DNA of 46,940 nucleotides, taken from positions 1 to 46,940 of the forward strand of contig ONCB01000001.1 of the NCBI GenBank assembly GCA_900316175.1, read 5' to 3'. Origin of the DNA: an uncultured Succinatimonas sp. Its GTDB lineage: Bacteria; Pseudomonadota; Gammaproteobacteria; Enterobacterales; Succinivibrionaceae. Positions 31,318-44,109 of the stretch are shown here, piece after piece; position 1 is the stretch's first letter; every line of letters starts with the position of its first letter. Below the pieces are notes generated by a model. It did no database searches and had not been told where the DNA came from. It worked only from the letters and a program-made list of their open reading frames with translations. Position numbers and translations under genes: made by a program.

Positions 31318-32835
31318 ATGGATAGCATTGTACATAATTTAAAGGCAGTTAACACTCAAGTTTCAAATTTTTCTCAACTTTACGAAAGAAAAATTGAAGA
31401 TATAACGCTGCTGTGCGTAAGCAAAACCAAACCAGAAGATATGGTAATTGAAGCCTATAACTCAGGAGAGCGCCATTTTGGTGAGTCCTATGCAGTAGAA
31501 GCATCTGAGAAAATCGCTTCTTTAAAGGAAAAAGGCTACAAGGATATAATCTGGCACTTTATAGGTCCTATTCAGAAAAATAAAACCAAACTTATTGCAG
31601 AGCATTTTGATATTGTTGAATCTGTAGACAGAGAGATCGTAGCTAAAAGATTAAATGACCAGAGACCTCCTTTTAAAAAGCCTCTGGAGGTTTTAATTCA
31701 GGTGAATATATCAGATGAAGATCAAAAATCAGGATGTCTTATATCTGATGTAGACGCTCTGGTAAAAGCTATTGATGCACTTCCTAATCTAAAGCTCAGA
31801 GGCTTTATGGGTATTGGAAAGGACACAGAAAACAGAGCTGAAATCGAAGCAGAATTTGCACAATTACAGAGCCTCTTTAATGAATACAAGACAAAACGTG
31901 CAGACTTTGACATACTTTCTATGGGTATGACTCAGGATATGGATCTTGCAATAAAAAAAGGTTCAACAGAAGTTAGAATAGGCACAGCAATTTTTGGTGC
32001 CAGAGTTTATAAGAGTAAAGAAATGGAACAGAATAATATCGCATTTATCGGCGGCGGCAATATGGCCAGCTGTATCTATGACAGTATCGTAAAAGGCTTT
32101 GATGCAAAGAATATCACTGTAAGTGGTCCTCATATCGAAAAGCTTGAAAAGTTTAAGGCTCAAGGTTCAGCTGTTACCACTGACAACATTGAAGCCGTAA
32201 AGAACGCAAAGGTTGTTTTCCTGGGTGTAAAGCCACAGATTTTAACCTCTGTTTTAGAGGAAATTGCCTCATCAGGAGCAGATCTTTCAGACAAGCTCTT
32301 TGTATCAATGGCAGCAGGTTTCAAGCTCTCATCAATCTCAGATAAGCTGAATACTCACAGAATCATCAGAATTATGCCAAATACACCTGCAAAGCTTGGT
32401 TTAGGTGTAATTGCAGTTTCATATGACAACGCTGTGTCAGATGCTGACAAGGCACTTGTAAAGACCATGCTCAAGAATATGGGGGCATGTATTGAAGGTG
32501 ATGAGCAGGCATTGAATGTTATTGGTGCCGTATGCGGATGCGGTCCTGCGTTTGTATATCGTTTCATGGAAGCCCTAATCAGTGAGGCTGTAGCTCACGG
32601 TATAGATGAAAAGGATGCTAGAATTATGGTTGAACAGACTGTATTCGGTTCTGCTTCAATGGTAATCAAAAACCAGGATAGCACCATTGCTTCTCTGCGT
32701 GAAGCTGTAACCTCAAAAGGCGGAACCACTTTCGCTGGACTTACCAAGATGACTGAAGGCAATTTTGAAGGAATTATGAAAAACACCATTCAGGCCAGTC
32801 TTGATAGAACCTATGAATTTGAGAAAATGTTCTAA
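31318..32835 (+). CDS. yggS-proC: Fused YggS (PLP homeostasis protein) + pyrroline-5-carboxylate reductase
   Basis: aa 1-~232 carry VSKTKP, FGESY, WHFIGPIQKNK, LSMGMT, VRIGTAIFGAR. aa 236-505 carry IGGGNMA, VKPQ, RIMPNTP, GCGPAFVY, VTSKGGTT. There is no stop between them. Confidence 0.92.
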   Translation: MDSIVHNLKAVNTQVSNFSQLYERKIEDITLLCVSKTKPEDMVIEAYNSGERHFGESYAVEASEKIASLKEKGYKDIIWHFIGPIQKNKTKLIAEHFDIVESVDREIVAKRLNDQRPPFKKPLEVLIQVNISDEDQKSGCLISDVDALVKAIDALPNLKLRGFMGIGKDTENRAEIEAEFAQLQSLFNEYKTKRADFDILSMGMTQDMDLAIKKGSTEVRIGTAIFGARVYKSKEMEQNNIAFIGGGNMASCIYDSIVKGFDAKNITVSGPHIEKLEKFKAQGSAVTTDNIEAVKNAKVVFLGVKPQILTSVLEEIASSGADLSDKLFVSMAAGFKLSSISDKLNTHRIIRIMPNTPAKLGLGVIAVSYDNAVSDADKALVKTMLKNMGACIEGDEQALNVIGAVCGCGPAFVYRFMEALISEAVAHGIDEKDARIMVEQTVFGSASMVIKNQDSTIASLREAVTSKGGTTFAGLTKMTEGNFEGIMKNTIQASLDRTYEFEKMF

Positions 32836-37720: not shown

Positions 37721-37768
37721 AGATAACTCCATATTTTTGTTTAATAGATATTAGCACAAATAACGCAT

Positions 37769-37798
37769 AAAAAAAATCCAGGGGTTAACCTGGATTTT
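37769..37798 (-). terminator. Intrinsic terminator ending the alpha operon (after rpoA2)
   Basis: Minus strand AAAATCCAGG-ttaacc-CCTGGATTTTTTTT. Confidence 0.88.
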
Positions 37799-37820
37799 CT
37801 TGCAATTCCGAATGTATAGA

Positions 37821-38810
37821 TTACATAGTTGTATCTAAATCTGATGGAGGCCAGTTCTCTAAACGCATGCCTAAAGATAAGCCACGCTCAGCTAAGACAT
37901 CCTTAATCTCGGTTAATGACTTCTTACCTAAGTTAGGAGTCTTTAACAGCTCAACTTCAGTCTTCTGAACAAGGTCACCAATGTACTTGATGCCTTCGGT
38001 CTTCAGACAGTTTGCTGAACGTACAGTAAGCTCTAAATCCTCAACAGGACAAATGAGCTTAGGATCGATGAGAGGACGGAATGTTGCATCCTCAGCTGGA
38101 GCTACAGAATTTCTGATATCAACAAATGAATTTAACTGATCTGCAAAGATGGTAGCTGCAATGCGAACTGCCTGATTTGGATCAATAGTACCATTAGTTT
38201 CAATATCTAAAATTAACTGCTCCTGCTCGTTACCAATGTCTGCAGTATGAACAGCAACATTTAAAACTGGGCAGTATGAAGCATCGATTAACAGACGACC
38301 GATGAAACTATCATCTGAACCTTCAACATATGGACGGCTAACAGTTGGAACATAACCGCGACCACGTGAAACATAAAGACTCATATTGAGTTCTTTATTG
38401 TCATCAGTTAAGTGACAGATAATCTGCTCAGGATTGCGGATTTCAATACCCTGTGGGCACTGAATATCTGCAGCGGTAACAGGACCGATTCCCTTCTTTC
38501 TGATATGAAGAACAGGATCGTCCCTTAATGATCCTTCAGAAGCAACAGCAACTTCTTTGAGATTTAAGAGAATAAGAAGAATATCTTCTTGGATGCCTTC
38601 TACTGCACTGTATTCATGCACTACACCATCAATCTCCGCTTCGGTGATGGCATATCCAGGAATAGAGGACAGCATAATACGACGGAGTGCTGTGCCTACA
38701 ATCTGAGCATAGTTACGCTCAAATGGCTCAAGAATTACACGGCTAACGTTATGAGAAAGCTCGGTAACATCCTTAATATTTGGCTTAATAGAATCAATGA
38801 TCTGATCCAA
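37821..38810 (-). CDS. rpoA: RNA polymerase subunit alpha, copy 2 (predicted beta-binding, alphaI-type)
   Basis: 329 aa. [42 protein letters not shown] and a full CTD. TTG start with GAGGG SD. Confidence 0.96.
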
Positions 38811-38856
38811 GGTATCACCCTCGTTTTTAGTACAGTTAGTAAGCTAGAATTCTGTA

Positions 38857-38875
38857 AGGGCGCATATAGCGCCCT
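38857..38875 (-). other. GC hairpin after rplQ with only a vestigial U-tract
   Basis: Minus strand AGGGCGC-tatat-GCGCCCT followed by TACAG. Confidence 0.6.
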
Positions 38876-38881
38876 CAAGCA

Positions 38882-39277
38882 TTATTCAGCTGCCTTTGAG
38901 TCAGACTCTTCAGCAACTTCTGGACGGTCGGTTAACATGATGTAAGCTACTGGAGCTGCATCATTTGCGCGTAAACCAGCCTTTAAGATACGGGTGTAGC
39001 CGCCGTTACGGTTAGCTGAAAGCTTGCCGATAACGTTGAATAACTTAGCAACAACAGCTTCATCCTGAAGACGTGCAAATGCTAAGCGACGGTTTGCAAC
39101 AGTATCAACCTTAGCCAAGGTGATTAAAGGCTCAACGAAGCGACGTAACTCTTTTGCCTTTGGCACAGTAGTCTTGATTACTTCGAAGGTTAATAAAGCC
39201 TTAGCCAGGTTACGGTATAAAGCAGCACGGTGAGCTGCAGTACGACCTAAATGACGACCACTTGTACGATGTCTCAT
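38882..39277 (-). CDS. rplQ: 50S ribosomal protein L17
   Basis: [25 protein letters not shown]. Confidence 0.99.
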
Positions 39278-39298
39278 TTTTTAATTCCTTCAATACAA

Positions 39299-40291
39299 TT
39301 ATTTATTTGGCACACGAAGTCCTGGTGGAGGCCAGTTGGCCACACGCATACCTAATGACAGATTACGCTGAGCAAGAATATCCTTAATTTCAGTTAAAGA
39401 TTTCTTACCGAGGTTAGGTGTCTTAAGTAACTCAACTTCAGTTCTTTGTACCAAATCGCCGATGTAAATGATTGACTCCGCTTTCAGACAGTTTGCAGAA
39501 CGAACAGTTAATTCTAAATCGTCTACTAACTGCATTAAAACAGGATCAGGCATTGGAGGAGCGACAGGAGCAATTACTCGCTCACTGATCTCTTCCTTAT
39601 CAATGATGTTATCAATGCTGCCACAAATCATGTTAGAAGCATTCATCAGAGCAACTTCAGGAGCTACTGTTCCATCAGTTTCTAAGTTGATTACTAATCT
39701 ATCTAAATCTGTACGCTGCTCAACACGTGCTGACTCTACTTCGTAGACATAGCGACGGATTGGGCTGTAGTTTGCATCGATAAGAACAACATCCTCAGAA
39801 TCTGCAGGTAAATGCTTTTCTGAAGTTGTCATTACGTAACCCTGACCTGAAGTTACGCGAAGTTTCATCGACAACGAAGCCTTGGCACCTTTTAGAGTGC
39901 AAATACGAGCTTCAGGGTCAACAAAAGATATAAAATCTGGACAGGTGATATCAGAAGCGTGAACTTCACCTTCACCACGTCTTTCAATTGTTAACCAAAC
40001 AGGCTCTTTAAGAGGCTCTTCAGTTCTGATACCAAGTGATTTTAAATTAATAACCACATCGAACAGATTCTCAACGAGATCACTCTTTGAGCTGTTAATA
40101 TCCTTTACGCCCGCCATCTGGAACGCATCAATTGCGTTACCAGACAGGGTCTTTAGTAAAATTCCACTTAAAGCTACGCCCAAAGTATAACCGAAACCAC
40201 GCTCCAATGGCTCAAGCACTAAACGTGCATGATTTGGACTAACTTCGGTATAGTCAACAGGCTTTGGCTTTAGCAGTTCAACAACAGACAC
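39299..40291 (-). CDS. rpoA: RNA polymerase subunit alpha, copy 1 (predicted beta'-binding, alphaII-type)
   Basis: 330 aa from GTG 40291 (GGGG SD). [23 protein letters not shown] and a full CTD, in the canonical rpsD-rpoA-rplQ position. Confidence 0.96.
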
Positions 40292-40338
40292 TAGAGATAC
40301 CCCACAATAATAAAGCGGTGCTGGCAATGTTGCCTATA

Positions 40339-40962
40339 TTACTTAGAATACAATTCGACGATGAGCGCTTCCTTAATATCAGAAGGTAGCTCAGCACGTT
40401 CAGGATTGTTCTTATAAGTACCCTTCATATGATCGTGATCAACATCGATCCATGTTGGCTTAAGAGCACGCTGACCGGATAAGTCGATTGCTGCCTTAAT
40501 ACGTAACTGCTTCTTTGCCTTTTCGCGAACAGCAATAACGTCTGAAGGCTGAACCTGGTAAGAAGGAATGTTTACGATCTTATCGTTAACAGTAATTGCC
40601 TTGTGGCTTACCAACTGACGAGCTTCCATACGGGTTGAACCAAAACCCATACGATAAACTACGTTGTCCAGACGAGCCTCAAGAAGCTGTAACAGGATTT
40701 CGCCGGTGTTACCCTGCATTCTTGATGCTTTCTTGTAATAGTTACGGAACTGACGCTCGAGAACGCCGTAAATACGACGAACCTTCTGCTTCTCACGTAA
40801 CTGCATGCCGTAATCTGACAGGCGAGGCTTGTTTGCGCCATGCTGACCAGGAGCAGTTTCTAACTTGCACTTGTCCTCAATTGCGCGAACGCCTGACTTT
40901 AAGAATAAGTCAACACCCTCACGGCGGCTTAATTTCAGGGCTGGACCTGTATATTTTGCCAT
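40339..40962 (-). CDS. rpsD: 30S ribosomal protein S4
   Basis: [30 protein letters not shown]. Confidence 0.99.
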
Positions 40963-40990
40963 TTATCTTTCTCCAAAACTTGAACTAGGG

Positions 40991-41410
40991 TTATACGCGA
41001 CGCTTCTTAGGTGGGCGACAACCGTTATGAGGGATAGGGGTAACATCAGTGATGTTAGTGATCTTGTAACCCTGAGCATTTAATGCACGGATTGAAGACT
41101 CACGACCAGGACCTGGGCCCTTAACCAACACTTCAAGATTCTTTACACCATATTCTTTAGCAGCTTCACCTGCACGCTCAGCAGCAACCTGTGCAGCGTA
41201 TGGGGTTGACTTACGTGAACCACGGAAGCCTGAACCACCAGATGTTGCCCATGATAAAACGTTACCCTGACGATCAGAGATAGTTACAATGGTGTTATTG
41301 AAAGATGCATGGATGTGTGCAACACCGTCAGCAACCTGCTTCTTTGAGCGCTTGCCAGAACGGGTGCGTGATGCAGCTGACTGCTGCTCTTTCTTGATTT
41401 CTTCTGCCAT
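40991..41410 (-). CDS. rpsK: 30S ribosomal protein S11
   Basis: [30 protein letters not shown]. Confidence 0.99.
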
Positions 41411-41420
41411 CTAAGCTCTC

Positions 41421-41777
41421 CTACTTCTTGATGCTCTTACGTGGACCCTTACGAGTACGTGCATTAGTCTTAGTACGCTGACCACGTACAGGAAGACCTC
41501 TGCGGTGACGTAAACCACGATAAGTACCTAAGTCCATTAGGCGCTTGATGTTCATTGAAATTTCACGGCGAAGGTCACCTTCAACGGTGAACTTTGCTAC
41601 TTCGGCACGAACCTTATCTACTGTGTTCTCGTCTAAATCTTTGAACTTAGCAGACTGGTCAACACCTGCTGCAGCTAAAATTTCAGCTGCACGAGTTGGG
41701 CCGATGCCATAAATTGACTGCAGAGCAATCACGGCAATCTTTTGATCAGGCACATTGATGCCAGCTATACGGGCCAC
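41421..41777 (-). CDS. rpsM: 30S ribosomal protein S13
   Basis: GTG start, [22 protein letters not shown]. Confidence 0.99.
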
Positions 41778-43509: not shown

Positions 43510-44109
43510 TTAAGCTCTAGCAGTTTTCTTAGCTGCTTTCTGCTCGGCAGTCTTCTTAGCAGGTTTCTGGATACCAACTGCTGCGAGATTGTCTAAGCGA
43601 GCCTTCTGCTTAGCAGCTGACTTCTCTTTAGACTTCTGTAAACGAGCCTGTGCATCGGTTACATAATCTGCAACTTCAACGGTACCGCCAGCTGCCTCAA
43701 TAGCAGCCTTAGCACCCTTGGTAACACCTAAACCCTTTAAGGTGATCTTCTTGGTGAAGTTTGGAACGCGTGATAAAACAACCTTCACAAACTTAACACG
43801 CTTGTTGATGAGACGTGCAGCTAATAAAGCTTCCATATCAACAACATCACCTTCGATACGATTTAAATCGTTTAAGGTAACTTCAGTAGTTACATATGCC
43901 TTAGGAGACCAGAAACCAAACTTTGGTAAACGGATCTTCATTGGCATCTGACCGCCTTCGAAGCCTGGACGCTTGTGGGCACTCTTACGTGCACCAGCAC
44001 CCTTAACACCACGGCCACAGGTCTTGCCTAAGCCTGAACCGCAGCCACGGCCTACGCGAACAGCTGCTTTACGTGAGCCCTCTGCAGGCTTTAAAGTATC
44101 TAGACGCAT
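43510..44109 (-). CDS. rplO: 50S ribosomal protein L15 with C-terminal extension
   Basis: [29 protein letters not shown], then about 50 extra residues. Confidence 0.97.

Follow-up and report, generated by a model that had tools for sequence, protein, structure and literature searches.

Two diverged rpoA genes flank rplQ in Succinivibrionaceae and point to an oriented alpha heterodimer of RNA polymerase

Results

Gene content of the locus

The window, a 46,940-nucleotide stretch of contig ONCB01000001.1 from an uncultured Succinatimonas sp. (assembly GCA_900316175.1), carries the spc-alpha cluster on the minus strand, with a 3' order of rpsM-rpsK-rpsD-rpoA-rplQ-rpoA. The genes rpsM, rpsK, and rpsD (40339..41777, minus strand) form the remainder of the alpha operon. 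They are followed by the upstream rpoA copy (39299..40291, minus strand), which sits in the ancestral operon slot, encodes 330 aa from a GTG start, and is predicted to be the beta'-side subunit, alphaII; the ORF lister prolongs it to a TTG at 40327, and homologues start at the GTG position. Next come rplQ, encoding ribosomal protein L17 (38882..39277, minus strand), and the downstream rpoA copy (37821..38810, minus strand), which encodes 329 aa from a TTG start and is predicted to be the beta-side subunit, alphaI. A few bases 5' of this TTG, the sequence reads GAGGGTG (38811..38825, minus strand), a putative Shine-Dalgarno element. A hairpin followed by a U run lies past the downstream copy (37768..37803, minus strand) and is likely an intrinsic terminator ending the operon (-17.3 kcal/mol, z -3.73, 0/200 shuffles as good); it is missing from the output of a consensus scan. 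A promoter scan of the locus gave nothing above chance (8 found vs 9.1 expected).

An earlier note, made from the letters alone, had claimed two intact alpha genes around rplQ, and both minus-strand ORFs indeed proved free of internal stops at these coordinates. Both exceed the TIGR02027 cut-off of 227.8 bits (249.5 upstream and 306.7 downstream), and the dimerisation, insert, and CTD domains (PF01193, PF01000, and PF03118) are present in each. Relative to E. coli K-12 RpoA, the upstream copy is 51% identical (324 bits) and the downstream copy 58% (381 bits); the latter is 88% identical to its Succinivibrio dextrinosolvens counterpart, and named relatives such as this one place the source lineage in Succinivibrio. 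Codon adaptation is 0.66 for the downstream and 0.55 for the upstream copy. The two share 31% identity in the NTD and 80% in the CTD, and public databases name both simply 'subunit alpha'. On alignment with E. coli alpha, all upstream substitutions that the note had listed were found, including R44S, the change at R45, and SGQGY, as were those in the downstream copy, namely ERNYAQIVG and a 183-201 segment of 15 residues vs 19. The upstream copy keeps R33/G34, T38, R182, and the 186-199 hairpin with R191, has S44/G45 and D66-I67-N68, and has lost IGRLL. The downstream copy keeps R44/R45, S49/S50, HEYS, EGxQED, T134, IGRLL, and Q227, and has N34/Y35/I38, N182, and a hairpin that is four residues shorter and without R191.

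The genome of the window has exactly two rpoA matches, and an intact third copy was not found in this assembly, which is 86% complete. Because the assembly is without rpoB and rpoC, beta and beta' residues were taken from relatives. Elsewhere in the window, a 505-aa ORF (31318-32835, plus strand) looks, read by eye, like a YggS/PLP-binding protein fused to pyrroline-5-carboxylate reductase ProC, and an L15-like ribosomal protein (43510-44109, minus strand) is extended at its C-terminus by a lysine/alanine-rich stretch of about 55 aa.

Public RNA libraries were also compared with the region. Fourteen RNA runs from nine studies each contain at least 91% of its sequence words, contigs span both rpoA genes in 4/4 runs aligned, and contigs of two studies end at 37802 and 37809, at the hairpin-U run just past the downstream stop; RNA-library contigs can derive from DNA, and these matches are no proof of transcription, strand, or level.

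Distribution and conservation of the two copies

Among 98 genomes of the family, 82 match TIGR02027 at least twice, 9 (genera g10, g15, and g16) have a single full-length rpoA, and 6, all incomplete, have no match; the remaining one, G097, has only weak CTD-like matches. Extra weak matches in G087, G092, G096, G097, and G027 are not rpoA; they are CTD-like stretches in long ORFs. Several family members have ORFs of 927-1381 aa (L192, L195-L201) with one or two weak alpha-CTD matches. The loci of 59 relatives were compared together with the window, with 31 further genomes with at least two matches left out. In this set, both copies are full-length and intact in 51 genomes (the end of a contig truncates one of them); the other 9 genomes have a single canonical copy. 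The second copy directly follows rplQ in 50 of the 51 two-copy genomes; in the other, G031 (L060, L061; G031:C140), the downstream copy is intact and lies about 46 kb from the alpha operon on the same contig. A search with a downstream-copy profile found no hidden second rpoA in 5/5 single-copy genomes. The isolate genomes of Succinivibrio dextrinosolvens and Succinatimonas hippei share the layout, which rules out an assembly artefact. The note had named a missing or decayed second gene in close relatives as evidence against its proposal; both copies are there in all 51 fetched genomes of the two-copy clade.

Elsewhere in the order, 218 of 234 genomes have one TIGR02027 match, 6 have none, and 10 have more than one. 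Several genomes of genus g27 of family f11 (L241-L246) carry two or more near-identical rpoA copies; in the three g27 genomes opened, out of the 10 with multiple matches, the duplicates are 96% identical, keep every motif, differ mainly in the linker, and have rplQ and rpsD beside both copies. Psychromonas and Leptospira are also listed with two rpoA genes per genome in the accessible text of PMC3294249. It is thus conceivable that the second Succinivibrionaceae gene is likewise redundant or decaying, and that dosage or its operon position explains why it persists. However, the Psychromonas, Leptospira, and g27 duplicates are identical or 96% identical with all motifs, whereas the two copies in the window share only 31% of the NTD (31-40% between paired copies across the two-copy genomes) and have complementary losses; a recent redundant duplication does not fit this divergence. 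Moreover, dN/dS in the NTD is 0-0.19 for both copies in 12/12 genome pairs, so both are under purifying selection, and the second copy was retained after its move of about 46 kb in G031. The site counts below and dN/dS largely refute redundancy, which we consider extremely unlikely.

Contact residues kept and lost

Published structural work has R45 of alphaI bonded to beta G1215/R1216 and, in alphaII, hairpin 186-201 engaged with beta' (PMC13202282), with R191 bridging beta' D410/D413 (PMC9177976); R191C destabilises the enzyme (PMC8092217). In B. subtilis, R42A alpha still binds beta (PMC13202282); R45 dependence is lineage-specific, not universal. We counted residues in E. coli numbering in 35 copy pairs of clade S (Succinivibrio/Anaerobiospirillum/Succinatimonas, 35 genomes), 16 pairs of clade R (Ruminobacter-type, 16 genomes), 9 single-copy family members, and 30 outgroups.

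On the beta side, all 35 downstream copies and none of the 35 upstream copies of clade S have R45, which is also present in both copies of clade R (16/16), in 9/9 single-copy members, and in 30/30 outgroups; the clade R upstream copy keeps R44 as well (16/16). H66/E67/Y68 are found in 35/35 downstream and 0-3/35 upstream copies of clade S and in 11-15/16 upstream copies of clade R. Across both clades, T134 is kept in 51/51 downstream and 4/51 upstream copies, and S49 and G73 in 51/51 and 0/51. On the beta' side the pattern is reversed: R191, Q194, and T196 are kept in 51/51 upstream and 0-1/51 downstream copies (R191 itself in 51/51 and 0/51). R33 is kept in 51/51 upstream and 5/51 downstream copies, and G34 in 50/51 and 1/51; we take these two residues to be alphaII contacts to beta. 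The family's beta' sequences keep D410. K86, which the note had given as a feature of the upstream copy, is indeed kept there, but it is kept in both copies (51/51 each) and is therefore uninformative on polarity. In the CTD, R265, N268, C269, V287, N294, G296, K298, and S299, presumably DNA and activator determinants, are invariant in all 102 copies.

The losses do not partition cleanly over the whole NTD. At 119 ancestrally conserved sites, a loss in one copy excludes a loss in the other no more often than expected by chance (Fisher p 1.0, 0.24), and 21-23 sites are lost in both. The published beta footprint (30-55) is not better kept downstream (retention 0.56 vs 0.64 upstream), and the enrichment in the beta' footprint (p 0.023) comes from a post hoc count. 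Thus, the published footprints separate the copies only partly. The losses show no global anti-correlation; it is their location that carries the argument. The polarity given in the earlier note, with the downstream copy as alphaI and the upstream copy as alphaII, agrees with the published R45-beta, R191-beta', and hairpin 186-201 contacts and with the family-wide conservation.

The dimer interface

The alpha dimer is held by a cluster of residues 35, 38, and 39 of one monomer and 46, 50, and 227 of the other, and point changes at 35 and 38 impair dimerisation of E. coli alpha (PMC3294249). In clade S, T38 is kept in 35/35 upstream and 0/35 downstream copies; F35 is mostly kept upstream and in 1/35 downstream copies, and L39 is mostly kept upstream. 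Conversely, S50 is found in 1/35 upstream and 34/35 downstream copies, Q227 in 6/35 and 35/35, and F231 in 0/35 and 35/35; the downstream copy keeps I46, S50, Q227, L228, and F231 (34-35/35). Since the halves of the cluster are kept in opposite copies, one ancestral cluster can form only between unlike copies. From this split cluster, we predict that the heterodimer forms, that homodimers form poorly or not at all, and that activity needs both copies. In clade R, the cluster is nearly ancestral in both copies.

These counts bear on two other readings. The downstream copy might form a housekeeping homodimer, and the upstream copy might join the enzyme only occasionally, in an accessory or regulatory role. 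In favour of this, the downstream copy is the nearer of the two to E. coli alpha, retains R45 and K86, and shows higher codon adaptation, and Francisella alpha1 alone gives low activity (PMC3294249). However, R191/E193/Q194/T196 are found in only 0-3/51 downstream copies, T38 and F35 in 0-1/35 of those in clade S, and the upstream hairpin is nearly invariant in 51/51 genomes, all of which makes this reading very unlikely. The other reading is that the heterodimer is preferred but neither obligate nor strictly oriented, so that several core species coexist. Beta binding by B. subtilis alpha does not need the R45 contact, and in clade R, where the upstream copy keeps R44/R45 and a near-ancestral cluster, such mixing is plausible. 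For clade S, whose upstream copy has lost R44, R45, HEY, D77, T134, and IGRLL together and whose cluster is split, we judge it very unlikely.

Structural comparison

E. coli alphaI and alphaII differ in conformation (PMC13202282). In single-chain models, both NTDs fold as alpha. Among 46 PDB chains common to both Foldseek lists, the downstream model wins 26/26 first-labelled chains and the upstream model 16/16 second-labelled chains, with 4 labels ambiguous; we take the first-labelled alpha chain in PDB entries to be alphaI. In a VIA comparison of the upstream model, 44/50 rows are second-labelled chains. Each copy thus prefers the matching chain conformation in solved structures, in line with the polarity proposed earlier. 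As the chains are not independent (mostly the E. coli enzyme, with one model per copy), the label convention is an assumption, and the VIA comparison covers the upstream model, this preference lends the polarity weak support.

Duplication history

In a tree of beta and beta' (39 rows), the single-alpha genera group together (SH-aLRT 100) as the sister of the two-alpha clade (100), which splits into R (holding named Ruminobacter and WG-1 loci) and S; topologies that join the single-alpha genera to R or to S were rejected (p 0.0017 and 0.0018). The alpha NTD tree (89 rows, 17 genomes left out) gathers all upstream copies in one clade (99) and all downstream copies in a second (99), and both clades divide into R and S. 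Upstream and downstream copies group together with a support of 72, and a grouping of single and upstream copies was not rejected (p 0.84); as this tree alone cannot place the single-copy clade, its placement rests on the beta and beta' tree and on indels. Separate duplications in R and S were rejected modestly (p 0.034 and 0.030; 50 rows), in a test that shared constraint could bias. The simplest reading is one rpoA duplication on the two-alpha stem, with the second copy set after rplQ. Recent gene conversion behind the CTD similarity was unsupported (dS > 1.1 or saturated in 5/5 genomes).

The two-alpha genomes also share a beta insertion of 133-148 aa near E. coli residue 411, found in 25/25 two-alpha, 0/6 single-alpha, and 0/8 outgroup genomes, E. 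coli included. It is alignable across the 25 genomes (loci L203-L240; for example, L214:1437-1913, beta of G052). It has no Pfam match, no Atlas match, and no match elsewhere in the RNA polymerase subunits, which shows neither novelty nor absence.

Several other features of beta and beta' were observed. A 26-aa beta' insertion near E. coli residue 592 occurs in all family members covering the site, single-alpha ones included, and is absent from the outgroups; beta' of clade R has a further insertion of 50-60 aa near 1072. Apparent inserts in rpoB and rpoC of G096 are N runs. In clade S, the clade in which the upstream alpha is without R44/R45, all 16 sequences covering the site have K in place of beta' R538, and several genera have T or M in place of beta R1216 (L203-L240).

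Clade R looks halfway in its sequences, with R45 and a near-ancestral dimer interface both retained in its upstream copy. Because clade R is a sister lineage with changes of its own, its downstream copy carrying an insertion and its own form of hairpin, 18-20 residues long, we infer this status rather than observe it. The chances seem to us evenly balanced that a three-step record of the change from homodimer to heterodimer survives in the family, running from the single-alpha clade through clade R, where the beta' surface of the downstream copy is gone and the upstream copy would still homodimerise and bind beta weakly, to clade S with its split interface and obligate oriented pair; the beta insertion, gained along that branch, may be a sign that the enzyme was remodelled more broadly.

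Discussion

Textbook bacterial RNA polymerase is alpha2-beta-beta' with an alpha homodimer. Based upon the residue patterns described here, we consider it highly probable that the two Succinivibrionaceae alphas pair as an oriented heterodimer, with the downstream copy as alphaI and the upstream copy as alphaII, and that this pair arose independently of that in Francisella. As each copy has lost a contact surface that the other keeps, the enzyme is likely built on a fixed mixed pair. In the mechanism we propose, one operon would supply both alphas at about 1:1. The ancestral dimer cluster would survive across the copies only, with upstream F35/T38/L39 opposite downstream I46/S50/Q227, and the mirror cluster would be rebuilt from changed residues on both sides, leaving homodimers mismatched. 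Beta would dock on the downstream copy and beta' afterwards on the upstream hairpin. Given this division of docking between the copies, both rpoA genes would be required, and as both CTDs keep their conserved residues, the enzyme would still have two working tails. Such a change is subfunctionalisation of a homodimer that was already asymmetric within the enzyme.

Literature searches found no paper on rpoA of Succinivibrionaceae, with subscription papers and supplements outside their scope. A 2011 survey of rpoA duplications lists others, and not Succinivibrionaceae, in its main text, the supplement on 1055 complete genomes being outside our scope (PMC3294249), and a 2026 review, in its accessible part, still gives bacterial alpha as a homodimer (PMC13374769). 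Within the literature found, a tested bacterial alpha heterodimer is described for Francisella only.

The archaeal and eukaryotic switch is too ancient to dissect. The independent switch proposed here sits in a common, culturable rumen and gut family that has an unduplicated sister clade and a less advanced clade, and these relatives seem to represent the stages before and midway through the change. The order of events, in which the partner surface would be lost first and the dimer interface locked later, is directly testable by natural subunit swaps, and the paired copies offer a natural map of alphaI-only and alphaII-only residues. In practice, rpoA is not a single-copy marker in Succinivibrionaceae.

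The closest known system is the Francisella alpha1/alpha2 heterodimer (Mukhamedyarov et al., 2011; PMC3294249). There, too, two diverged full-length rpoA paralogues arose by a lineage-specific duplication, only one alpha keeps the R45 equivalent, and dimer-cluster residues are changed (PMC3294249). Each Succinivibrionaceae copy prefers the matching Francisella subunit: the upstream copy scores 188.7 bits with alpha2 and 150.7 with alpha1, and the downstream copy 210.3 with alpha1 and 156.8 with alpha2. Descent is nonetheless separate. The copies score 324 and 381 bits with E. coli alpha vs 151-210 with the Francisella subunits, and a shared duplication is contradicted by the single-copy sister clade within the family and by the single match in 218 of 234 other genomes of the order; the independence claimed in the earlier note is thus supported, although Francisella is not in any of our trees. 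The Succinivibrionaceae pair would work like alpha1/alpha2 and is, judging from these comparisons, not descended from it. The systems differ in layout, with the positional polarity reversed: the Francisella alpha that keeps R45 (alpha1) is encoded in the operon and alpha2 outside it (PMC3294249), whereas in clade S the copy in the ancestral slot has lost R45 and the second copy is in the same operon. They also differ in that a putative halfway clade survives in Succinivibrionaceae, where the heterodimer is a prediction from sequence. The Francisella heterodimer is reportedly also the subject of work by Charity et al. in 2007, and PDB 6wmp is an entry for this system.

More distantly, archaeal Rpo3/Rpo11 and eukaryotic Rpb3/Rpb11 and AC40/AC19 are also alpha-like heterodimers derived from a homodimer by duplication and partition (PMC13374769). 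Unlike these pairs, both Succinivibrionaceae copies keep the full length, insert domain, and CTD, and the likeness is one of analogy only. We know of no extra assembly subunits for the Succinivibrionaceae alphas. Finally, oriented heterodimers of E. coli alpha have been engineered with R45A (PMC3294249, PMC13202282), and in these the alpha without R45 is confined to the beta'-side position, as we predict for the upstream copy. Compared to this engineered pair, the Succinivibrionaceae case is natural and reciprocal, with a partner that lacks the beta' hairpin, and involves many changed sites, including those of the dimer interface.
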